Part shown: positions 21,115 through 31,962 of the stretch, in pieces | Numbering within the stretch: position 1 is the first letter of the stretch | How the letters are laid out: each line of letters opens with the position of its first letter | Source: Bacteroidales bacterium | Lineage (GTDB): Bacteria; Bacteroidota; Bacteroidia; Bacteroidales; B18-G4 | NCBI GenBank assembly: GCA_018400295.1 | Contig: JAGYMZ010000001.1 | Coordinates: 2,672-66,671 of the forward strand | Length of the DNA: 64,000 nucleotides | Direction of reading: 5' to 3' | Notes under the pieces: generated by a model | Told to the model about the DNA's origin: nothing | The model's input: only the letters and a program-made list of their open reading frames with translations | Database searches by the model: none | Program-made: the position numbers and the translations under genes

Positions 21115-22059
21115 ATGACAACTTTTGCAATCACCATACTGGGATGTGGCGCTTCTTTGCCGCTCCTGAGCAGGAACCCCAGCGCTCAGGTTGTCAATGT
21201 ACACGAGAAGCTGTTTCTGTTGGATTGTGCTGAAGCTACCCAGCTGCAACTTCGAAAATACCGTGTTAAGTTCCAGCGTATTCAGCACATTTTGATTTCG
21301 CATCTGCACGGAGATCATTATTATGGGCTCATTGGATTTCTTATGACCAATCATTTACTGGGCCGGCAGAAGGAATTGCACCTGTATGCCCATAAAGAGT
21401 TGAAGGAGGTCATGGAGATGCATTTGCGGATTTCTCAGACCGAGTTGCGTTACCCTTTGATATACCATGATTTTGATCCGGAGAAGCATCAGGTGATATA
21501 CGATGCCGGGGATATGCAAATAGAGGCTTTTCCCCTGGAGCACAACTTTCCTGCTTCCGGTTTCATTTTCAGGGAGGAAAAGGGAAGGCCGAATATAGAT
21601 AAGGATTTTATCAGGGGGCGAAAGATCAGTCATGCTGAAATTCAGCAGATCAAGTCCGGTGAAGATTATACCGATCCGGAAGGCCGGGTTTTTAAGAACG
21701 AAGAAATTACCCTTCCTTCCCCGGAACCCCGCTCCTATGCGTATTGTTCCGATACTGCATATCATGAACCCATCATACCTTATATTGAGGGGGTTACCCT
21801 TTTATATCACGAGTCTACGTTTATGCAGGACATGGCAGAGGCTGCACGGGAGAAATTTCACGCCACGGCCTCAGAAGCGGCCACAATTGCCAAAAAAGCG
21901 AGGGTTAAAAGACTTCTGTTGGGTCATTATTCGGCCCGGTACAGAAATCTGGATGAAATGCGCAGGGAGGCAGCGGAGATCTTTCCGGAAACAATATTGG
22001 CTGATGATGGCAAGGTCATACTCCTCCCACAAGAACCATCAGAGAAGGGCGTCGAATAA
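21115..22059 (+). CDS. rnz: ribonuclease Z
   Basis: ISHLHGDHYYG metallo-beta-lactamase motif, AYCSDT, LYHESTF, LLLGHYSARY. Confidence 0.95.
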   Translation: MTTFAITILGCGASLPLLSRNPSAQVVNVHEKLFLLDCAEATQLQLRKYRVKFQRIQHILISHLHGDHYYGLIGFLMTNHLLGRQKELHLYAHKELKEVMEMHLRISQTELRYPLIYHDFDPEKHQVIYDAGDMQIEAFPLEHNFPASGFIFREEKGRPNIDKDFIRGRKISHAEIQQIKSGEDYTDPEGRVFKNEEITLPSPEPRSYAYCSDTAYHEPIIPYIEGVTLLYHESTFMQDMAEAAREKFHATASEAATIAKKARVKRLLLGHYSARYRNLDEMRREAAEIFPETILADDGKVILLPQEPSEKGVE

Positions 22060-24969
22060 AATTTCTACCGGATGCAGGGCCTTCCGGCCAGTACCATCCA
22101 GGATCTGATGCCGGCAGCTTGTTCCGGGCGCTGCAATAAGAACGTCCTCAGTAGTTTTCCGGATCTCCGGGAACAATACTATTTCCCCGACATTCATCGA
22201 CAGATCATAGTGTTCTTTTTCATAACCAAAGGCGCCTGCCATTCCGCAGCATCCGGATTTGATCTCGGTAACCGTGTAATTAACAGGAAGGGATAACATT
22301 TTTTTGGTGGGTTCTGTGGAGGCCAGCGCTTTCTGGTAGCAGTGCCCGTGAAGCCTGATGTCTTTGGATGCTGAGGAAAAGGCATCCCTTTGTATATTGC
22401 CCCGTTCAAATTCCTGAAGAATAAACTCATCGAACATTAAGCAGGAAGCGGATAATTTTCGGGCTGCCGGAACGAGCTCCGTATCCACCAGTTCGGGGTA
22501 TTCATCCCTGAAAGTGAGTATTCCGGAGGGTTCAATGCCGATCAGGGGGGTGTCCGGGCCAACGATTTCATGGAGCAACGCAACATTTTTATTGGCAATT
22601 TTTTTTGCTTTCCTTACCAGTCCTTTGGATAAAAAGGTCCTCCCGCTCTGTGTATGCCTGGGGATTTCCACAGAATATCCCAGACGGAGCAACAATTTGA
22701 TGGCCTTAATGCCTATATGGGTATCGTTATATTCGGTAAATTCATCGGCGAAAAAATACACTTTGCCTCTTGACGCGGTATTGTATAGCGTTTCTTTGTT
22801 TATGGAAGCCCAGGCATGCAGTGTTGTTTTACAGAGCAGCGGAATAGAACGTTTTGGTGCAAAGCCCAGTACTTTTTTTATCAGCGCGGAGGCAATGCGG
22901 TTCCGGATGAAAAAATTATAAATCCCCGGCAGCAGGGATCCCAGCTTGTTGATCAGGGCCAGATTGGCAATTACCCTGGTACGCATTGGGATCCCGTTCT
23001 TATCGTAATAATGTTGTAAAAACTCTGCTTTGTATTTGGTTATATCAACATTGGAAGGGCATTCCGATTTACATCCTTTACAGGATAGACACAGGTCCAG
23101 AACATCATAGATCTCCTTATGATCAAAAGGATCTTTCCGGCTGCCACGGGTGAGAAATTCCCGCAGGATGTTTGCCCTGGCGCGTGTAGTGGTGTTTTCG
23201 TCTCTGGTTGCCATGTAGCTGGGGCACATGGTACCCCCGGATATTTCCGTTTTTCTGCAGTCACCCGATCCATTGCATTTTTCTACTGCATGCAGTAGTC
23301 CCTGATCTGCTGTGAAGTCAAATACAGTTTTAATTTCAGGTTCGGGAGCACCCGGGTCATAGCGCAGTTGCGTTCTCATGTCCGGGGTATCGATGATCTT
23401 GCCTGGATTAAAAATATACGCCGGATCCCATGCTTCTTTGATTTCCCTCAGCAGATCATAGTTTTTATGCCCGATCATCAGGGGAATGAATTCACCCCGC
23501 AATCGGCCATCACCGTGTTCCCCGCTGAGTGACCCCCTGTATTTTTTTACCAGTTGTGCAGTTTCCGTGGCAATGATTTTAAAAAGTGCTACATCGTGCG
23601 GATCTTTCAGATTTAATACGGGTCGCAAGTGTAATTCCCCGGTGCCTATATGGGCATGATAAACACAAGATAACCGGTGTTTTTCCAGTATTTTCCGGAA
23701 GTCTTGCATGTATCCGGGCAAAGATTCCGGGGTTACGGCTGTATCTTCAATGACAGAAACGGGCCGGGCATTGCCGGGCATATTGGATAAAACCCCCAAT
23801 CCGGATCTTCGAAGCTCCCAAACCTTGTTTATTCCATCTCCGGTAACGAGCGGAAAATGGTATCCCAGTCCCTGTGCCCGCATGTCTTTCTCCATGGAAG
23901 CTGCAATGCGCCGGATCTCTTCCATGGTATTCCTGCTAAAATCGATGATCAGGATGGCGCCCGGATCCCCTTTCAGAAAAAACCTGGATTTTCTAAGGCC
24001 GATGTTTTTTTCTGAGAGTTTCAGGATGGTGTCATCCATAAGCTCCACTGCACCGGGATTGTATTTTAAAGCGATAAGGTTCCCGCGAAAGGCTTCATCC
24101 AGGGTATGGAAATGAACGCAAAGCAGGGCTGATCGGTTGGGTGGCAAAGGGACCAGATTGAGTTTGATCTCAGTGATAAAGGCCAGCGTTCCTTCCGATC
24201 CGGCAATAAGTTTGGAAAGGTTGATTTTTTCACCATTGTCAGAGAAAGGTTCTGTATCCAACAGCAGGTCCAGGGCATATCCGGTGTTGCGCCTTTTTAT
24301 GGATGGGTCCGGAAATTCCTTCCGTATCTCATGCTGGTTTTCAGGATCGGATAATTTTTTGTCCAGGACCCGGTAAATCGTTGCTTCCAGGGATTGACCG
24401 CTGAGTTTTTCTTTGTATTCCTGCAGGGAAAGGGGACCGAATATTGCTTCCGATCCATCCGAGAGGATGGCTTTGATGCTGAGTGTATGATCGCGCGTAT
24501 TCCCGTAAATGAGTGAATGAGCCCCGCATGCATTGTTCCCCACCATGCCCGACATCATGCAGCGATTGGTGGTGGAAGTCTCCGGGCCAAATAGCAAGCC
24601 GTAACGGGCCGCTTCCCTGTTAAGCGCATCACGGATGACCCCTGGTTCCACCCTCGCCCAATGTTCGTCCGGGTTGATTTCCAGGATCCGGGTCATATAT
24701 CGTGAAATGTCCACGACAATACCACTCCCGACCACCTGTCCGGCCAGGGAAGTGCCGGCGGCCCTCGGGATAAGTGCTGTGTTTTGTTCTGAGGCAAACC
24801 GGACAAGTTTTTTGATGTCTTCGGTATGGCGGGGCCGGGCTATGGCTTCCGGTATTTCACGGTAGGGGGAAGCATCGGTTGCGTGCATCAGGCGGTAACT
24901 GTAGTCGTAAAACAGGTCTCCGTCAAGTGTGCGTTTTAATTTTTCCAGTTGCGTTGGGGAGGTCATCAT
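22039..24969 (-). CDS. FAD-linked, Fe-S-containing 2-hydroxyacid dehydrogenase (YdiJ/GlcD-GlcF fusion type)
   Basis: PRAAGTSLAGQ FAD-binding motif, GSEGTLA, HAHIGTGELH, SGEHGDG, CLSCKGCKSECP, HGHCYQK, SGCCGMAG. Confidence 0.88.
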   Translation of the reverse strand: MMTSPTQLEKLKRTLDGDLFYDYSYRLMHATDASPYREIPEAIARPRHTEDIKKLVRFASEQNTALIPRAAGTSLAGQVVGSGIVVDISRYMTRILEINPDEHWARVEPGVIRDALNREAARYGLLFGPETSTTNRCMMSGMVGNNACGAHSLIYGNTRDHTLSIKAILSDGSEAIFGPLSLQEYKEKLSGQSLEATIYRVLDKKLSDPENQHEIRKEFPDPSIKRRNTGYALDLLLDTEPFSDNGEKINLSKLIAGSEGTLAFITEIKLNLVPLPPNRSALLCVHFHTLDEAFRGNLIALKYNPGAVELMDDTILKLSEKNIGLRKSRFFLKGDPGAILIIDFSRNTMEEIRRIAASMEKDMRAQGLGYHFPLVTGDGINKVWELRRSGLGVLSNMPGNARPVSVIEDTAVTPESLPGYMQDFRKILEKHRLSCVYHAHIGTGELHLRPVLNLKDPHDVALFKIIATETAQLVKKYRGSLSGEHGDGRLRGEFIPLMIGHKNYDLLREIKEAWDPAYIFNPGKIIDTPDMRTQLRYDPGAPEPEIKTVFDFTADQGLLHAVEKCNGSGDCRKTEISGGTMCPSYMATRDENTTTRARANILREFLTRGSRKDPFDHKEIYDVLDLCLSCKGCKSECPSNVDITKYKAEFLQHYYDKNGIPMRTRVIANLALINKLGSLLPGIYNFFIRNRIASALIKKVLGFAPKRSIPLLCKTTLHAWASINKETLYNTASRGKVYFFADEFTEYNDTHIGIKAIKLLLRLGYSVEIPRHTQSGRTFLSKGLVRKAKKIANKNVALLHEIVGPDTPLIGIEPSGILTFRDEYPELVDTELVPAARKLSASCLMFDEFILQEFERGNIQRDAFSSASKDIRLHGHCYQKALASTEPTKKMLSLPVNYTVTEIKSGCCGMAGAFGYEKEHYDLSMNVGEIVLFPEIRKTTEDVLIAAPGTSCRHQILDGTGRKALHPVEILFDALL

Positions 24970-25965: not shown

Positions 25966-26100
25966 GGATGTAAAAATATAACGAATTGTTTTTCCGTAGT
26001 GAATGCAGAAAAAAAATGTTCAGTATTTTTGTGGCCGGTATGGGAGATCCGGCACTCAAGGGTTGGTGTTATGGTCTTCGTTTCTTATTTTGTAAAGCTT

Positions 26101-26712
26101 ATGAAATCATTTTTTCATCGGACACCAAAGCTTCTTCTTGTTTTTCCATTGTTTCTGGTCCTGGCTGGATGCGGCATTTTTGACCAGGCATCTGAGATAA
26201 GGGCTTTTTCGCGTTGCGAATTCCGGTTATCCGGTACGGAGGATGTAAGGTTGGCTGGTGTTCCCTTCGATAACGTCAACAGTCTGGATGACCTGAATGT
26301 CATTGAAATTGCACGGATCACAGGTGGGGTGGCAGCGGGTGACCTGCCGTTGGAGTTGACATTGCTGCTTGATATACGGAATCCGAACACCCGTCAGGCC
26401 GCGTTGAATGCGCTGGACTGGATTTTGTACATTGATGGTCATGAAATTACCCGTGGCGGCCTGAGCCGGCGTATAACTGTTGCCCCCCTGGGCGATGTGG
26501 AACGCATGCCATTGGGAATAAGCGTGAACCTATATAAGATCATGGAAGGGGGATCCGGAAATGCATTGATCAACCTGGCCCTGAATCTCAGCGGACAGGG
26601 CCAGGTTCCTTCCCGCGTATTGCTTAAAGCCAAACCCGTGATCTACATTTCCGGAAAGCCTGTGGCTTATCCGGGGTATATTAATATTCGGAATGAATTC
26701 ACTTCACGATAA
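26101..26712 (+). CDS. LEA type 2 / WHy domain lipoprotein
   Basis: Lipobox LAGC after ATG 26101; IRNPN..A.LNALDWIL.IDG; the upstream part of track ORF 25534-26712 is antisense to lplA. Confidence 0.7.
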   Translation: MKSFFHRTPKLLLVFPLFLVLAGCGIFDQASEIRAFSRCEFRLSGTEDVRLAGVPFDNVNSLDDLNVIEIARITGGVAAGDLPLELTLLLDIRNPNTRQAALNALDWILYIDGHEITRGGLSRRITVAPLGDVERMPLGISVNLYKIMEGGSGNALINLALNLSGQGQVPSRVLLKAKPVIYISGKPVAYPGYINIRNEFTSR

Positions 26713-26735: not shown

Positions 26736-28541
26736 TCAGAGCAGGCCGCCTTTCTGGTATATTTCCATCTGCACATCAAAGAATTTGTTGATATGTGTGG
26801 AGACATGATTACGCAAATTGGTGATTTCTCCGGTTTTGAAGTTTACACGGATGGTATCCCCGTTTTTTAAATCGATGTCTTTCAGAAGTTCCGGGTCGTA
26901 TGTCAGGATCGGAAATGCAGCGTTGATGGCATTTCTTTCGTAAATGGCCCCGTATGATTCTGCAAGGATGCAGCTAATGCCCAGAGATTTAAAACAATCC
27001 ACTGCTTGTTGCCGGGAACTTCCTGCTCCGAAATTTTTACGTGTTACAATGATATCGCCAGGCTGGGCTTTACTGGCGAAATCTTCATAGCCTTCAAGAT
27101 TGTCAAACGTATATTGTCCCATTTCATCGATATCCGTAATGGTAAGGTAGCGGTTATGGAAGATCATATCTGTGTCAATATCGTCTACCTCTATGAGCCA
27201 GACCCTTCCTTCTGTTTCAATGGGACGGTCTTCTTTTGGCTTTTCTTTGGAAACTTTTTCCTGTGCTGCTGATGTTCCCTTTTCAAATTCAGCAGGGATC
27301 GCAGGAATGTCATGTTGATCGGTGATGTATCCGGCAACGGCGGAGGCGGCAACCGTGGCCGGAGAAGCGAGGTAAACCGAGCCCTTGCCTTGTTTGCCTG
27401 CAAAATTCCGGTTACCAGTGCTGATCGTAACTTCACCCGGGCCATTTTGTCCTACCTGTCCTGCAGCACAACCCGCACAACCCGCATTGGAGACCAGGAC
27501 ACCGGCGTCCTTGAATATTTTAATGATCCCTTCGTTGAGGGCTTGTTTCCAGATTTGGTCGGTGGAAGGTACGATCTTCAGAACGACACCGGGGGCCACC
27601 TTTTTATCTTTTAGTATGGACGCGGCGATCCGGAGGTCGTCAATCCGGCCATTGGTGCAACTGCCAATGAAAGCAGAGTCTATTTTGGTTTTTTTGACCG
27701 AGGTTACCGGGGCATCATCGTGGGGATGGCCTGGATTCGCCACCATGGGTATGAATTGGGATATATCTATCTCATATTCTTTTTTATAGCAGGCATCGTT
27801 GTCTGCGTATACCGGTTCAAAATCTTTTCCGGTGCGCTTTTTCAGTTCACTGATGATTTTCTCACTGGGGGGGAACATAATGATGATGGCACCCAGTTCC
27901 GTGGCCATGGATGAGATGGTAATGCGTTCATCCAGCGTAAGCGCATCGATGGCATTCCCGTACATTTCAACGGAACGGCCCAGCAATGTGCTGGCTCCGA
28001 ATTTATTCAGCATGTTTAATACAATGTCCTTTGCTGTTACGGCATCCGGTTTTTTCCCTGTGAAGGTGATCTTAACCGATTCCGGTACTTTAAACCAAAC
28101 CGATCCATGTGCCCAGGCTGCTGCGATATCCTTATCGCCCATGCCCTGCCCGAAAGCACCGATGGCGCCCATAATGTTGGCATGCGAGTCCGTGGATATG
28201 AATGTGCCACCAGGCAGGATGAGTCCCTTATCAATGGCTATGTGCGTACCTATGCCCTGATCTATATCGTATACCTTTATGCCTTTGTTTCGTGCATACA
28301 TCCGGCAATAATGCTGGTTTGCCGCATATTTTTGATCAGAACCCCCGGGATTGCAATCGAATGTAAAATAGGTTTTATCGGGGTCATCTACATCAAGGCC
28401 ATTGTTTTCCAGGTTCTTCACAACATTTGCCCCGGCAAAATCACGGGCCACCCTGGCATCAATGGTGATGTCCACAATGTCACCTGGACGGACCCCGGCA
28501 ACACCGGAGTGATTATGAATGATCTTTTCTGTGATGTTCAT
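26736..28541 (-). CDS. fused LeuC-LeuD / homoaconitase-family [4Fe-4S] hydro-lyase
   Basis: DSHA, IGSCTNGR, AGCAGCA, STGNRNF (large subunit) fused to DIDTDMI and NFGAGSSRQQA (swivel subunit). Confidence 0.9.
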   Translation of the reverse strand: MNITEKIIHNHSGVAGVRPGDIVDITIDARVARDFAGANVVKNLENNGLDVDDPDKTYFTFDCNPGGSDQKYAANQHYCRMYARNKGIKVYDIDQGIGTHIAIDKGLILPGGTFISTDSHANIMGAIGAFGQGMGDKDIAAAWAHGSVWFKVPESVKITFTGKKPDAVTAKDIVLNMLNKFGASTLLGRSVEMYGNAIDALTLDERITISSMATELGAIIIMFPPSEKIISELKKRTGKDFEPVYADNDACYKKEYEIDISQFIPMVANPGHPHDDAPVTSVKKTKIDSAFIGSCTNGRIDDLRIAASILKDKKVAPGVVLKIVPSTDQIWKQALNEGIIKIFKDAGVLVSNAGCAGCAAGQVGQNGPGEVTISTGNRNFAGKQGKGSVYLASPATVAASAVAGYITDQHDIPAIPAEFEKGTSAAQEKVSKEKPKEDRPIETEGRVWLIEVDDIDTDMIFHNRYLTITDIDEMGQYTFDNLEGYEDFASKAQPGDIIVTRKNFGAGSSRQQAVDCFKSLGISCILAESYGAIYERNAINAAFPILTYDPELLKDIDLKNGDTIRVNFKTGEITNLRNHVSTHINKFFDVQMEIYQKGGLL

Positions 28542-28570
28542 ATCCTGAGTTTTATAATTTCAAAAATGCA

Positions 28571-29122
28571 TCACACCTGCAGTCTTTCCTTGAAAGGGAG
28601 GAATGTCATAAAATCTGCATGGTGTACGATGTATGCCTCTGTTGATCTTTTCACCATATTTCCTTCCCCGGCGTGGGTGGCAATGATGTGGCATACTTCG
28701 GGGGGCAGTCCGCATTCTTCGGCCAGTGAAACGCCGGAAAAAGGATGCCGCAGGTATTTCCCGTATGAGCCCTGAATGCTGTTGCCATTTTCATCTTGAA
28801 CATATTCCAGGAGCTTACCAACGTCTGCCAGGATAGCTCCCGCGATAAGAACATCCATATTTACAGGAAGCGCATCACCGAAAAAATCGTTGATCTTTTT
28901 CCCGCTTTCCCGTGCAATATGCACCACCGCCCTTTTATGATCCATGAAGGTCACTTTGAGATCAGGTCCGCATAGCAGGGTGAAAGGGATGCGCTTCAGG
29001 TCTTCCGGGGTCATAACACTTCTGTCAAGCGCCAACTCCCAGGTTTTGGCTGTATTTTCACGGAGTTCTTCATTCTTTATCCATTCAAGCTCCGGCCAGA
29101 GGGCTAAAACTGCTTTATTCAT
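28571..29122 (-). CDS. HD-fold protein with degenerate HD motif (LADVGK)
   Basis: H..., GAILADVGKLLEY, RHPFSG, IIATH, HHAD pattern of HDIG proteins. Confidence 0.8.
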   Translation of the reverse strand: MNKAVLALWPELEWIKNEELRENTAKTWELALDRSVMTPEDLKRIPFTLLCGPDLKVTFMDHKRAVVHIARESGKKINDFFGDALPVNMDVLIAGAILADVGKLLEYVQDENGNSIQGSYGKYLRHPFSGVSLAEECGLPPEVCHIIATHAGEGNMVKRSTEAYIVHHADFMTFLPFKERLQV

Positions 29123-29145
29123 AATTAAGGATTTTTTATATTAAA

Positions 29146-29171
29146 GGAAAGCGGGTTCAATCTCCGCTTCC
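29146..29171 (-). terminator. hairpin between the dehydrogenase and HD genes (weak terminator or stabiliser)
   Basis: GGAAAGCGG/CCGCTTCC inverted repeat, followed by a T-rich stretch on the minus strand. Confidence 0.35.
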
Positions 29172-29175
29172 CGGG

Positions 29176-30372
29176 TTATAACCTGGATATTACTGCATCG
29201 GTCATTTGTTGGGTGCTGGCAGCACCTTTCGCAATGACATCGGGTTTGCCTGACATCTTCATCATATCGTATGTTTTCACCTTGCCTTCCGATATCACTT
29301 CTGCAATGGCGCTCCGGATGGAATTTGCTTTTTCATTTTCATTAATGAATTCCAGCATCATGCAGGCCGATTCAAACATGGCAATGGGATTGACGATGGA
29401 GACATCGTATTCTGCATATTTCGGAGCGGAGCCATGTGTGGGTTCAAAAACGCCGATGCCTGAATCGGGGTTGAACTGAGCTGAGCAAGCAAATCCCAGA
29501 CCACCGATGAGTCCGGCAAACCCATCGGAAACAATATCTCCGAACATATTGCCCGCAACAATGACACCGTAATTTTCCGGGTTTTTGGTCAACCACATCA
29601 TCTGTGCATCTATGTTGGTGTTCCAGAGCTCTATGTCGGGATAATCAGACTTCTGGATATCTTTGGCCATTTTATACATCATCCCGGATGTTTCGCGGAT
29701 AACGTTTGGCTTTTCGCAAACGGTTACCGATGTGTATTTGTAATTCCGTGCATGTTCAAAGGCAGCGCGCAGAATTCGTTCCGTGTGCTTTTTTGTGAAT
29801 ATCCGCGTTGAAACGGAAATCTCATTTTTCGGGAAACTACTGAAATTCTTAACGAACCTGGGATGTGTTTTTAAAGCTTCGTAAACAATATCCGGCGGAT
29901 CCGACCATTCGACCCCCCCATACAATCCTTCTGTATTCTGGCGGAAGATTACCACATCTACTTCGGGTTCTTCAATGGAATTTCCCGGCCCTTTGCGAAT
30001 GAAATTCAATGGGTTTCCTTTGTACGATTTACAGGGTCTCATGCAAATGTCGAGGCCGAAATGTTGTCTCAGTCCGACAATCGGACTGGAATATACATAC
30101 CCCTTTTCCCTGAGTCCAGGGGAAAGTTCTTCGGCTGCCGCATCCTTGGGTTTCGAGGTGATCGCGCCAAAAAGGCCGATCTTGTGTTCCTCCAATAATT
30201 TGAGGGTCCTTCCGGGCAATGGGTTCCCTTCCGTTTTCCAAAATTCCCAGCCAATGTCTCCGTGTACGTATTCAGCTTCAAATCCGGATGCATCCAATAC
30301 CCTGATGGCTTCCTTTAAAACGGTTTTTCCGATCCCGTCTCCGGGAAGTGCAACGATGGTTCTTTTGGCCAT
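29176..30372 (-). CDS. isocitrate/isopropylmalate-family beta-decarboxylating dehydrogenase (homoisocitrate dehydrogenase-like)
   Basis: LPGDGIG, YSSPIVGLR, FRQNTEGLY, KPN, NIDA, NMFGDIVSD, EPTHGSAPKY. Confidence 0.9.
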   Translation of the reverse strand: MAKRTIVALPGDGIGKTVLKEAIRVLDASGFEAEYVHGDIGWEFWKTEGNPLPGRTLKLLEEHKIGLFGAITSKPKDAAAEELSPGLREKGYVYSSPIVGLRQHFGLDICMRPCKSYKGNPLNFIRKGPGNSIEEPEVDVVIFRQNTEGLYGGVEWSDPPDIVYEALKTHPRFVKNFSSFPKNEISVSTRIFTKKHTERILRAAFEHARNYKYTSVTVCEKPNVIRETSGMMYKMAKDIQKSDYPDIELWNTNIDAQMMWLTKNPENYGVIVAGNMFGDIVSDGFAGLIGGLGFACSAQFNPDSGIGVFEPTHGSAPKYAEYDVSIVNPIAMFESACMMLEFINENEKANSIRSAIAEVISEGKVKTYDMMKMSGKPDVIAKGAASTQQMTDAVISRL

Positions 30373-30426
30373 ATGTGTCTGGTTTTAACAAGTTTAATAG
30401 TAAGTATATCTCGCACGATAAGTAAA

Positions 30427-30513: not shown

Positions 30514-31962
30514 ATGAATCTTGCGGGAAGAATAGATGAATATATTTTCAGGACGATTTCCGGGGTAGCTCAGGAAGAGAACCTGCCGGCTTATGTGATT
30601 GGCGGTTATGTGAGGGACCTCATCCTGGGCCGTCCTTCTGTAGATGTGGATATTATGACGGTCGGAAGTGGAATTGACCTTGCCAGGAAAGTAGCCTCAA
30701 AGATAGATAAACGGATCCCTGTTCATTATTTTAAGAATTTTGGCACGGCCATGTTCCGGTATGATGATGGAAAACAGAACTGGATCATAGAGTTTGTGGG
30801 TGCCCGCCGGGAATCCTACAGCAGGGATTCCCGAAAACCGGTTGTCGAGAACGGAACACTCGAGGATGATCAGAACCGGCGGGATTTTACGATAAATGCC
30901 ATGGCCCTGGATCTTGCACCTGACCATTATGGTGAATTGATCGATCCGTTCAATGGGTTGGCGGACATCGAAAAGAAGATCATACGTACGCCAAGGGACC
31001 CCGGTATTACATATTCTGATGATCCCCTGCGTATGTTACGAGCCATCCGGTTTGCAACCCAGCTGAATTTTACGGTTGATCCTACCTCTTTTGATGCCAT
31101 TATCCGGAACAAAGAGCGGATACGGATCATATCCCGCGAACGCATCAACGATGAGCTGCAAAAGATCATTGCATCCGATAAACCCGGGAGGGGATTTGTT
31201 TTGCTTGATAAAAGCGGATTGCTTGCGTATATTTTCCCCCAGTTGCAGGACCTTAAGGGAGCAGAATTTGTGGATGGAAAGGGTCATAAGGATAATTTCC
31301 TGCATACCTTGGAAGTACTTGATAATGTCGCTGAAAAATCAAACAATATATGGTTGCGGTGGGCCGCCCTGCTGCATGATATTGCCAAGCCGGCGACAAA
31401 AAAATACGATCCGGAAACGGGATGGACCTTCCATTCTCATGAGTATGTCGGGTATAAAATGATCCCGGTCATATTTCGTAAAATGAAACTTCCGATGAAT
31501 GAAAAAATGAGGTACGTTCAAAAGCTTGTTTTGTTGCATTTGCGTCCCATCGTTCTTTCTGAGGAGAGCGTGAGCGATTCTGCCATCCGCAGATTATTGT
31601 ACGAGGCCGGAGAGGATATTGACGATCTTATGCTTTTGAGTGAAGCTGACATAACATCCAAAAACCCCAGGAAGGTACTCCGGTATCTAAAAAATTTCAC
31701 CCTGGTGCGAAAAAAAATGAAGGAAATTGAAGAGAAGGACAGGATCAGGAACTGGCAGCCCCCCATATCCGGGGAAACTATAATGAAGGTGTTCAATATC
31801 CCTTCCGGGAAAGTTGTGGGTATTATAAAAAATTCAATACGCGAAGCCATCCTGGATGGTGAGATAAACAATGAATATGATGAGGCATACCGGTTTATGA
31901 TTGAAAAAGGGAAACAGCTCGGACTGAACCCCACGGAAAATCCCCCATCCAATGAGTGCTGA
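30514..31962 (+). CDS. cca: CCA tRNA nucleotidyltransferase with HD domain
   Basis: GGYVRD, DVDI, RRDFTINAM, DDPLRMLRAIRF, LLHDIAK. Confidence 0.93.
   Translation: MNLAGRIDEYIFRTISGVAQEENLPAYVIGGYVRDLILGRPSVDVDIMTVGSGIDLARKVASKIDKRIPVHYFKNFGTAMFRYDDGKQNWIIEFVGARRESYSRDSRKPVVENGTLEDDQNRRDFTINAMALDLAPDHYGELIDPFNGLADIEKKIIRTPRDPGITYSDDPLRMLRAIRFATQLNFTVDPTSFDAIIRNKERIRIISRERINDELQKIIASDKPGRGFVLLDKSGLLAYIFPQLQDLKGAEFVDGKGHKDNFLHTLEVLDNVAEKSNNIWLRWAALLHDIAKPATKKYDPETGWTFHSHEYVGYKMIPVIFRKMKLPMNEKMRYVQKLVLLHLRPIVLSEESVSDSAIRRLLYEAGEDIDDLMLLSEADITSKNPRKVLRYLKNFTLVRKKMKEIEEKDRIRNWQPPISGETIMKVFNIPSGKVVGIIKNSIREAILDGEINNEYDEAYRFMIEKGKQLGLNPTENPPSNEC

Follow-up and report, generated by a model that had tools for sequence, protein, structure and literature searches.

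We analysed a 64,000-nucleotide (nt) stretch of the genome of a Bacteroidales bacterium (assembly GCA_018400295.1, contig JAGYMZ010000001.1, positions 2,672 to 66,671; hereafter the window), in which three genes on the minus strand encode an Iso_dh-family dehydrogenase, an HD-domain protein and a fused aconitase-family hydro-lyase, here called ACN1. The trio very likely makes up half of a module of six genes that is conserved; the remaining genes, for a second hydro-lyase (ACN2), a CitD::CitE fusion and CitF, lie elsewhere in the same genome. The module probably removes one carbon from (or adds one to) a 2-oxo acid via citrate-like intermediates, with a citrate-lyase-type enzyme in the place of a synthase. 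A first-pass annotation of the window had proposed the three genes as a candidate pathway and had noted that no synthase accompanies them. The trio does form a conserved and apparently undescribed unit, but it is not self-contained, being half of a larger module; and while no synthase is adjacent, a carbon-carbon (C-C) enzyme exists elsewhere, either CitD::CitE with CitF or, in other lineages, a citryl-CoA synthetase/citryl-CoA lyase (CCS/CCL) system. The missing synthase is thus answered by a lyase in its place. The features of the trio are as follows.

29176-30372, minus strand: Iso_dh-family beta-decarboxylating dehydrogenase, 398 amino acids (aa), from the open reading frame (ORF) list and Pfam.
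28571-29122, minus strand: HD-domain protein of 183 aa in which Ala takes the place of the dyad His, from the ORF list and Pfam.
26736-28541, minus strand: ACN1, fused LeuC/LeuD-type [4Fe-4S] hydro-lyase, 601 aa, from the ORF list and Pfam.
29123-29175, minus strand: spacer of 53 nt between the dehydrogenase and HD genes, transcribed through (metatranscriptome contig of run X6).
28542-28570, minus strand: spacer of 29 nt between the HD and ACN1 genes, from the ORF coordinates.
30434-30427, minus strand: Bacteroidetes-type -7 box TATATTTG (TAnnTTTG) 5' of the dehydrogenase gene, read by eye.

The arrangement was compared across 80 loci from named genomes (Bacteroidales, Marinilabiliales, Prolixibacteraceae and Lentimicrobiaceae, together with metagenome-assembled genomes labelled Cloacimonadota, Chlorobiota and Delongbacteria). 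The dehydrogenase gene lies immediately upstream of the HD gene in 75 of the 80 evaluable loci, at a median spacing of about 27 nt (70 loci), and ACN1 is found downstream of the HD gene in 33 of 76 evaluable loci; the arrangement is far from chance. Clustering of the neighbouring ORFs revealed the full operon, in the order CitD::CitE-CitF-Iso_dh-HD-ACN1-ACN2, in eight loci (L019, L032, L036, L044, L047, L065, L069 and L084), where it often ends with an aldehyde dehydrogenase gene after ACN2. In several relatives, short genes of the 23S rRNA intervening-sequence protein family or of a PD-(D/E)XK nuclease family interrupt the module (L016:9504-9902, L069:1810-2169 and L062:5634-6011); they fall between the dehydrogenase and HD genes, between the HD and ACN1 genes or between ACN1 and ACN2, and look selfish or mobile.

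To follow the module beyond gene adjacency, 151 genomes of the order, representing 149 genera, were searched with HD, CitF, ACN1 and ACN2, and orthologues were found in 62, 67, 61 and 63 of them, respectively. The module-type CitF orthologues show 63-78% identity, and the HD gene occurs as a single copy in 64 of the 151 genomes. All four genes occur in 55 genomes, none in 83 and a part of the set in 13. The pairwise Fisher tests of this co-occurrence gave p-values of 1.6e-28 to 3.3e-38, which are uncorrected for shared ancestry, though the sample holds nearly one genome per genus. ACN1 is present in 58 of the 62 HD-positive genomes, even where the two genes are not adjacent. The conservation of the trio, which had been named as a check, is therefore borne out both by gene order and by co-occurrence. 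Three genomes (G005, G034 and G056) carry CitF and ACN2 without HD and ACN1, indicating that the citrate-side half can stand alone. Altogether, the module is found in about 40% of the sampled genera of the order.

In the genome of the window (2.63 Mb, 91 contigs, 92% complete), the CitD::CitE fusion and CitF form a two-gene operon on contig C45 (53324-56181), with 59-67% identity to the proteins of locus L019. CitF, CitE and the N-terminal CitD-like domain are 38%, 36% and 34% identical to their E. coli counterparts, and the alpha, beta and gamma components of citrate lyase are all present in the two genes. The CitF of L019 passes the equivalog model of the citrate-lyase alpha subunit (TIGR01584, 518 bits against a cut-off of 501), whereas its CitE part scores 265 bits against the beta-subunit cut-off of 443 and also matches the citramalyl-CoA-type lyase RipC. 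In the region of the E. coli CitD attachment residue Ser14, MAFFT places ESG--D against G(E/G)xxRSD, and a conserved Ser lies in an adjacent three-residue insertion (RSDC motif), so that the alignment is ambiguous here. ACN2, a canonical fused LeuCD-type hydro-lyase, is encoded on contig C18 (25461-27239) and is 70% identical to its L019 orthologue. A separate CitF clade of about 42% identity, probably the true citrate lyase, coexists with the module-type CitF in a few genomes. Two genomes have a local duplication of the alpha subunit, with two adjoining module-type CitF genes whose products share 68-73% identity with the CitF of the window's genome (G057:C5:56685-59953 and G106:C1:1689157-1692437). 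An OAD_beta Na+-pump subunit gene upstream of CitDE-CitF in L022, L060 and L073 was considered as evidence for an oxaloacetate product and rejected, as it is part of an ordinary methylmalonyl-CoA epimerase and MmdA/D/C/B operon. The position of this Na+-pumping methylmalonyl-CoA decarboxylase operon next to CitD::CitE-CitF is probably synteny; it puts the lyase beside propionate-fermentation genes.

A second form of the operon encodes an ATP-grasp_2 protein (532 aa), a CoA-ligase (300 aa), a short Citrate_synt protein (246-262 aa), an HD protein, two successive LeuC+LeuD pairs and an Iso_dh dehydrogenase. We read it as CcsA-CcsB-Ccl-HD-ACN1(L,S)-ACN2(L,S)-Iso_dh in L096, L102 and at least 15 further metagenome loci; the genome of the window lacks it. 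Its HD protein is 50% identical to the one studied here and has an intact HD dyad. Of the two split pairs, the first is orthologous to ACN1 (47/51% identity), with which it has the signatures GSSRQQAV and DTDMIFHNRYLHIT in common, while the second pair is ACN2-like (49/41%) and the dehydrogenase is 50% identical and contains the same insertion as the one described below. As judged by sequence comparison, the dehydrogenase, HD, ACN1 and ACN2 orthologues are thus the constant part of the module, and only the C-C enzyme is swapped, a CitDEF-type enzyme for one of the CCS/CCL type. The genes upstream of this second form (M3 peptidase, toxin-antitoxin, methylmalonyl-CoA mutase, and electron-transfer flavoprotein (ETF) and Fe-S oxidoreductases) were inspected, and none is diagnostic of the substrate. 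Upstream of CcsA in L116, L118, L114 and L120 lie genes for a CCG-domain protein, for a protein with Pyr_redox_2 and ferredoxin parts and for an ETF alpha subunit fused to a ferredoxin, presumably accompanied by ETF beta. It is possible that in this subclade the ETF/ferredoxin genes provide an electron-bifurcating or -confurcating partner of the redox step.

An explanation of the trio as ordinary genes has to be weighed against the rest of the genome. The only other Iso_dh gene encodes a 455-aa isocitrate dehydrogenase (IDH) on contig C23, with the citrate synthase gene gltA directly after it, and a 753-aa mitochondrial-type aconitase is encoded on C45; the oxidative branch of the tricarboxylic acid (TCA) cycle is already complete without the trio. 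No protein of the LeuA, homocitrate-synthase or citramalate-synthase type (HMGL) was found in the 92%-complete genome, nor was IlvD (PF00920) in a search whose control was found in 14 of 14 reference genomes, and a motif search of the genome found no signatures of ketol-acid reductoisomerase (KARI) or acetohydroxyacid synthase (AHAS). A match to the pattern CDKITPG elsewhere on contig C1 was considered as IlvD and dismissed as chance, since PF00920 finds no IlvD. With LeuA, IlvD, KARI and AHAS all absent, there is no leucine pathway for the trio to serve, and a role of the module as a LeuA-independent leucine route was likewise rejected for this genome. The organism, which also lacks LeuB, is probably auxotrophic for branched-chain amino acids and probably fermentative, with a small genome. 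Of the 151 genomes of the order, 52 encode a canonical LeuB, which is depleted among those with the module (12/62 vs 40/89, p = 0.0016); in the 12 genomes where a bona fide LeuB above the cut-off (423-480 bits) coexists with the module, it is always at another locus.

Apart from ACN2, the trio comprises the only LeuB/LeuCD-like genes in the genome, as would fit a divergent LeuB with LeuCD (or Icd with Acn) beside an HD phosphohydrolase that is there by chance. This explanation is nevertheless effectively refuted by the absent leucine genes, the separate canonical icd-gltA and aconitase genes, the coexisting bona fide LeuB, the adjacency of the HD gene, the tight four-gene profile with CitF, and an ACN1 that lacks a catalytic His (below). 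The earlier opinion that these are not simply leuBCD or acn/icd, and its call for a check for separate acn and icd genes, are both answered in its favour by the TCA genes on C23 and C45 and the missing leucine/valine pathway.

Taken together, the components suggest a sequence of four steps. The dehydrogenase would reductively carboxylate a 2-oxo acid to a 3-carboxy-2-hydroxy acid, which ACN1, with or aided by the HD protein, would dehydrate to a cis-ene acid; ACN2 would rehydrate this to a citrate-type tertiary alcohol, from which CitF/CitD::CitE would release acetate and leave a 2-oxo acid that is one carbon shorter. In other lineages CcsAB/Ccl would release acetyl-CoA instead. The cleavage (catabolic) direction is the one we favour, with moderate confidence, because both C-C systems cleave in their known roles, relatives of the HD protein adjoin importer genes and LeuB is depleted among module-positive genomes. 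The known roles in question are citrate fermentation for the one enzyme and the reductive TCA cycle for the other.

In the opposite, biosynthetic direction, the lyase pair would run backwards as a thioester-sparing 'synthase', for example from 2-oxoglutarate to 2-oxoadipate or towards a cofactor precursor, and would replace enzymes of the LeuA or homocitrate-synthase type in some lineages. All known hydro-lyase and Iso_dh pairs of this kind elongate their substrates, the oxidative decarboxylation pulls such a sequence forward, the reverse reaction in the CCS/CCL form could conserve ATP, and LeuB is often absent from module-positive genomes. We still regard biosynthesis as improbable, since the genome lacks the IlvD/KARI/AHAS route to 2-oxoisovalerate and has DapF for lysine, the HD relatives are linked to importers, and no aminotransferases, LysW-type carriers or Aks partners are linked to the module in the loci examined. 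Moreover, a dehydrogenase that is linked to the module, acting on L-piperidine-6-carboxylate, catalyses a catabolic and irreversible aldehyde oxidation.

The latter enzyme also bears on the substrate. In operons of the L019 type, the genes directly after the module encode L-piperidine-6-carboxylate dehydrogenase (P6CDH; 801 bits, cut-off 730), a lysine-ketoglutarate-reductase-like enzyme of the AlaDh_PNT type and saccharopine dehydrogenase. These lysine-to-aminoadipate (lysine-catabolic) genes are the sole pathway-specific partners found, and P6CDH is enriched in genomes with the module (24/62 vs 13/89, odds ratio 3.7, p = 0.001). Both observations point to 2-oxoadipate as the substrate, which, with CO2 and NAD(P)H, would be converted via homoisocitrate, cis-homoaconitate and homocitrate to 2-oxoglutarate and acetate. 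By our own bookkeeping, lysine breakdown via saccharopine would thereby become redox-neutral, and the module would provide a redox-consuming, O2-independent exit from lysine/aminoadipate catabolism. Cleavage of a 2-oxo-dicarboxylate, most likely 2-oxoadipate, is the best full explanation that we can offer, although we place it a little below even chances; taken on its own, a substrate of the homocitrate type is a tentative choice, plausible rather than probable.

The first-pass annotation had described all three proteins as departing from their family consensus, and closer analysis of each agrees. The dehydrogenase matches Pfam Iso_dh (PF00180) with 259 bits and reaches no NCBIfam equivalog cut-off. 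Its best NCBIfam matches are to homoisocitrate dehydrogenases (HICDH) of the AksF type (NF040626, 251 bits with a cut-off of 540, and NF040619, 239 bits with a cut-off of 500); it remains below the cut-off of LeuB (TIGR00169, 177 against 353.2 bits) and misses every IDH equivalog cut-off. Alignment to 6lky and 3u1h showed that the catalytic Tyr, Lys, three Arg and three Asp are kept, in the motifs LRQ, MRP, FRQNTEGLY, EKPN, NIDA and GDIVSD. At the two positions that read the gamma-substituent, the dehydrogenase has Ile-Val, compared with Leu-Leu in isopropylmalate dehydrogenase (IPMDH), Ile-Arg85 in the Thermus HICDH and Asn-Val in IDH; the equivalent of IDH Ser113 is present, and that of Asn115 is Ile. 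A conserved 15-aa insertion precedes these specificity positions and is also found in the distant orthologue of L096 (...PELQGKGLVYRSPIVRLRQ...). The orthologues, present in 75 of the 80 loci, are 69-86% identical.

ACN1 consists of the Pfam domains Aconitase and Aconitase_C (PF00330 and PF00694). It passes subfamily models only (PRK00402 with 429 bits and hacA_fam with 403 bits) and misses the leuC and leuD equivalogs as well as HacA_Meth (307 vs 550) and HacB (92-116 vs 230). Among solved structures, those of the M. jannaschii LeuC/HacA proteins match at 267 and 233 bits, LeuC (4nqy) being the closest. Together with the dehydrogenase, these best matches to AksF- and HacA-type families were counted as pointing to a possible homocitrate-type substrate. 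The Fe-S cysteines (equivalents of C358, C421 and C424), the D165-S166-H167 motif, the general base Ser642 and the GSSR motif are kept in ACN1 (30/30 orthologues). In contrast, the position of His101, which in aconitase protonates the leaving hydroxyl (PMC8184944), is Cys in 21, Thr in 8 and Leu in 1 of 30 orthologues. The His147 motif GxxHQ is altered from GICHQ to GIGTH, displacing the His by one position, DSHTCT has become DSHANI, and GSSREH has become GSSRQQ, which is fixed in 30/30 orthologues. Equally invariant (each 30/30) are an Arg at the Q72/His position, Ser for N258 and Lys for R452. ACN2, with only 33% identity to ACN1, is canonical at all of the altered positions, and both ACN2 and the M. 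jannaschii LeuC keep His101 and His147. ACN1 is accordingly a remodelled aconitase-family enzyme without the His101-equivalent proton donor, and the gained Arg suggests that its substrate may carry an extra anionic group. Fungal and Thermus homoaconitases perform only the conversion of homoaconitate to homoisocitrate, while the homocitrate side needs a second aconitase-family enzyme (PMC3556520). The strict conservation of two hydro-lyases in the module fits a substrate of this kind, where one enzyme cannot do both halves, as with homocitrate (PMC3556520).

The HD protein matches Pfam HD (PF01966) with 37 bits (cut-off 22) and HDIG with 32 bits. It shares the fold and the H...D...H...H...D positions (H62, D100, H126, H150 and D170) with the HD-domain phosphohydrolase superfamily, but differs in the dyad, which reads ILADVGK instead of the wider family consensus LLHDVGK. 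In the 80 orthologue loci, the dyad His is Ala in 71, Cys in 7, Ile in 1 and Ser in 1, and never His, whereas the His-Asp dyad is kept in more distant relatives. The Bacteroidales-type orthologues are 77-87% identical, and the family is compact (898 clusters at 50% identity). An AlphaFold2 model of the protein had a pLDDT of 96.8, and its best fold match in the PDB was the HD domain of YhaM (9h3f, TMq 0.68, 20% identity). The fold search was discarded as a guide to function, as it returned only generic HD domains (YhaM, PgpH, YfbR and, weakly, the Ddi2 cyanamide hydratase). A sequence search of the PDB found no solved relative, and no second domain was recognised in the longer members of the family that were inspected as Rosetta-stone fusions.

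The neighbours of the HD family are specifically lyase, hydro-lyase and carboxylate-transporter genes: among its relatives, L104 has CitF and a tripartite ATP-independent periplasmic (TRAP) transporter, L101 has TRAP genes and L103 has an Ldh_2 dehydrogenase, while the distant relatives L098-L100 and L103 are on short contigs with little informative context. We know of no HD protein in 2-oxoacid or citrate-lyase pathways. A role as a substitute for CitG/CitX is unlikely, since the HD protein is equally present in the CoA-based CCS/CCL form, which has no acyl carrier protein. Because the HD-ACN1 order is kept in both forms of the module and ACN1 lacks the usual proton donor, we lean towards the HD protein being an accessory or partner of ACN1 rather than a separate pathway step. 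No linked gene implies a phosphorylated intermediate, and for the earlier suggestion of a possibly phosphorylated substrate no supporting result was found. The accompanying idea of an HD protein that supplies, unmasks or repairs the substrate is speculative, the fold matches being generic HD domains.

Several of these features would also suit uncharged alkyl substrates. The module would then be a reverse citramalate/isopropylmalate (IPM) route with the CitDEF paralogue as a citramalate-type lyase, converting, for example, 2-oxobutyrate, CO2 and NADH to pyruvate and acetate, or 2-oxoisocaproate to 2-oxoisovalerate and acetate, and it would act as an electron sink in the fermentation of Thr, Met or Leu. 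The Ile-Val pair of the dehydrogenase resembles the Leu-Leu of IPMDH, the YLTI loop of ACN1 is nearer to the YLVY of IPM isomerase than to the YLRT of homoaconitase, and the closest solved structure is that of the M. jannaschii isopropylmalate/citramalate isomerase. The low beta-subunit score and RipC match of CitE, as well as the anticorrelation of the module with LeuB, are in line with this. However, LeuCD-type enzymes perform both half-reactions on citramalate and IPM, which would make two hydro-lyases superfluous, and the Arg gained in ACN1 suggests an additional anionic group. Nor is any branched-chain or Thr/Met catabolic gene linked among about 120 loci, the sole pathway-specific operon partner being lysine-to-aminoadipate. 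We therefore consider alkyl substrates quite unlikely.

The same module could also run in the same direction on 2-oxoglutarate, via isocitrate, cis-aconitate and citrate to acetate (or acetyl-CoA) and oxaloacetate, as a redox-neutral glutamate fermentation or a segment similar to the reductive TCA cycle with dedicated non-canonical enzymes. This would account for the CitF of L019 passing the citrate-lyase alpha equivalog and for the resemblance of the alternative lyase to the citryl-CoA synthetase/lyase of the reductive TCA cycle; glutamate is also far commoner than aminoadipate, which would explain the presence of the module in so many of the sampled genera. On the other hand, canonical forms of aconitase and IDH are encoded elsewhere in the genome, and a single aconitase suffices between citrate and isocitrate, yet two distinct hydro-lyases are strictly conserved. 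The dehydrogenase has neither the Asn115 of IDH nor the Arg85 of HICDH, the latter reportedly being needed for isocitrate use according to work on the Thermus R85V variant, and the separate CitF clade, probably the true citrate lyase, is present in some genomes. On balance, 2-oxoglutarate is an unlikely substrate, though one to be taken seriously.

Cleavage of 2-oxoadipate itself has several points that weigh against it. The Arg85 of the Thermus HICDH, which is said to read the distal carboxylate, is replaced by Val in the dehydrogenase (...SSPIVGLRQ vs ...GAIRYLRR in the alignment to 3asj/1x0l), and this Val is kept in the orthologues, including that of L096. The small-domain loops are YLTI in ACN1 and NLTY in ACN2, compared with the YLRT of methanogen homoaconitase and the YLVY of IPM isomerase; across orthologues the ACN1 loop is YL(T/A/H)I, and Arg26 of the HacB YLRT is absent. 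CitG, CitX and CitC were not found in the genome or in 84 loci (PF01874 profile for the genome, and tblastn with the E. coli proteins). P6CDH is lacking in 62% of the module-positive genomes, including that of the window, the reactions of citrate lyase and CCS/CCL are reversible in principle, and the co-occurrence p-values above are uncorrected for shared ancestry. Speculatively, the insertion of the dehydrogenase and the Arg gained in ACN1 might serve as alternative carboxylate contacts. In its most specific form, the 2-oxoadipate reading would be an O2-independent 'reverse homocitrate' route, in which ACN1 and the HD protein represent a new class of the aconitase superfamily, without His101 and dependent on, activated by or repaired by an HD metalloprotein, and in which CitD::CitE/CitF works without a group made by CitG/CitX/CitC. 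We regard this complete picture as speculative and rather doubtful as a whole.

A literature search on homocitrate lyase, on citramalate lyase with isopropylmalate genes and on citrate lyase with homoaconitase/HICDH clusters found no description of the module among the papers searched; it apparently combines known enzyme families in an undescribed way with three unusual components. The alpha-aminoadipate pathway consists of homocitrate synthase, aconitase and homoaconitase (LysTU/Lys4) and homoisocitrate dehydrogenase. The upper part of this pathway in Thermus and fungi is similar to the module in having an Iso_dh-family dehydrogenase and two aconitase-family enzymes, one per half-isomerisation (PMC3556520), and its HICDH (AksF) and HacA are the best family matches of the window's proteins. 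It differs in that the module has a citrate-lyase- or citryl-CoA-lyase-type enzyme instead of homocitrate synthase and an obligatory extra HD protein, lacks the Arg85 and His101 equivalents and is likely to run in reverse; lysine is made in this genome by the diaminopimelate (DAP) route.

The coenzyme B elongation of methanogens (AksA, AksD/E = HacAB, AksF), which handles tricarboxylates of several chain lengths, is closest by sequence (AksF2 251 bits, HacA_Meth 307 bits), but the module proteins miss its equivalog cut-offs by a factor of two. There, one homoaconitase does both half-reactions with a YLRT loop that reads the distal carboxylate, and neither a lyase nor an HD protein takes part. 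With the citrate lyase CitDEF of Klebsiella and E. coli (citCDEFXG), the module has in common CitF and a CitE with a CitD-like domain; in the module, however, CitD and CitE are fused, CitC/CitX/CitG are absent, CitE is well below its cut-off, and the pair co-occurs with hydro-lyases and a dehydrogenase instead of oxaloacetate decarboxylase or a citrate carrier. The sister form (L096, L102 and L108-L134) has the ATP-grasp_2, CoA-ligase and short Citrate_synt proteins of the Hydrogenobacter-type reductive TCA cycle (CcsAB/Ccl), and formally equals its segment from 2-oxoglutarate via citrate to acetyl-CoA, but it has two LeuCD-type hydro-lyases (one without His101) and an HD protein, and shows no sign of autotrophy. 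LeuB/LeuCD, finally, belong to the same two superfamilies, and the Ile-Val of the dehydrogenase and the YLTI of ACN1 are uncharged and IPM-like; the module nevertheless scores below the LeuB, leuC and leuD equivalogs, in a genome without LeuA or an Ilv pathway.

The trio genes are real and transcribed in nature. Contigs from four salt-lake metatranscriptomes match all three genes with at least 99% identity, and the junction of the dehydrogenase and HD genes is bridged by a single RNA contig (28636-29424, run X6), showing that these two are co-transcribed. In three runs (X6, X11 and X13) an RNA contig ends at 30400-30404, just downstream of the -7 box TATATTTG, to which we infer that the transcript start is tied. 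None of the listed RNA contigs bridges the HD/ACN1 junction; co-transcription of these two genes is inferred from their short spacing and the conserved HD-ACN1 order. A scan of sigma-70-type promoters and terminators gave matches no more numerous than in shuffled sequence. The co-orientation and gaps of 53 and 29 nt noted previously agree with the ORF coordinates, and the proposal of one promoter is in keeping with the -7 box and the bridging contig, HD/ACN1 co-transcription being probable. The neighbouring features in the window are the following.

23-610: DapF homologue, truncated by the left window edge.
22039-24969, minus strand: FAD-linked oxidase/4Fe-4S dicluster fusion, 976 aa (FAD_binding_4 and FAD-oxidase_C).
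26092-26712, plus strand: LEA_2-like lipoprotein gene, convergent on the 3' end of ACN1.
30514-31962, plus strand: CCA-adding enzyme/poly(A)-polymerase-family gene, divergent from the trio.

The trio has the genes of the CCA-adding enzyme and MiaA to one side of it; to the other lie those of the LEA_2-like lipoprotein, LplA and the FAD-oxidase/Fe-S fusion. No synthase and no leu, lys or aks gene is thus adjacent to it in the window, as had been pointed out before, and the dapF reported for the same window is the homologue at its left edge. The CCA-adding enzyme gene carries an HD domain of its own and is followed by miaA; its synteny, with miaA, to the trio recurs in about ten related loci (e.g., L011, L015, L021, L043 and L059). 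The position of the LEA_2-like gene is kept in L015, L037, L043 and L081, and RNA contigs that run about 300 nt beyond the ACN1 stop may belong to it. The FAD-oxidase/Fe-S fusion resembles D-2-hydroxyacid dehydrogenases of the GlcD/GlcF type. The closest relatives (L015, L043 and L059, 63-69% identity) show the same synteny, with the fusion gene downstream of the trio and, in L059, directly 3' of ACN1. This may point to an accessory role in the pathway as a 2-hydroxyacid dehydrogenase, or simply to conserved synteny.

If the proposed function is true, widespread anaerobes of sediments and digesters own a route of central metabolism that pathway databases do not contain, its carriers comprising about 40% of the sampled genera of the Bacteroidales order as well as Cloacimonadota, Chlorobiota/Ignavibacteria-like bacteria, Delongbacteria and other lineages with the CCS/CCL form. 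It would fill a gap in the anaerobic catabolism of lysine (2-oxoadipate) or glutamate, and would change genome-scale models, as the genes are now annotated as isocitrate/isopropylmalate dehydrogenase, 3-isopropylmalate dehydratase, citrate lyase and 'HD domain protein'. It would also pose three puzzles, namely how an aconitase-family enzyme works without the canonical acid catalyst, what an HD protein does in carboxylic-acid metabolism and how a citrate-lyase-like complex manages without cofactor-loading genes. Reversible modules for C2 excision or addition that avoid thioester hydrolysis are of interest for the engineering of carbon-conserving pathways. Should the reverse homocitrate route hold, the module would serve amino-acid fermenters as a sink for electrons and CO2 and would be redox-neutral from lysine.

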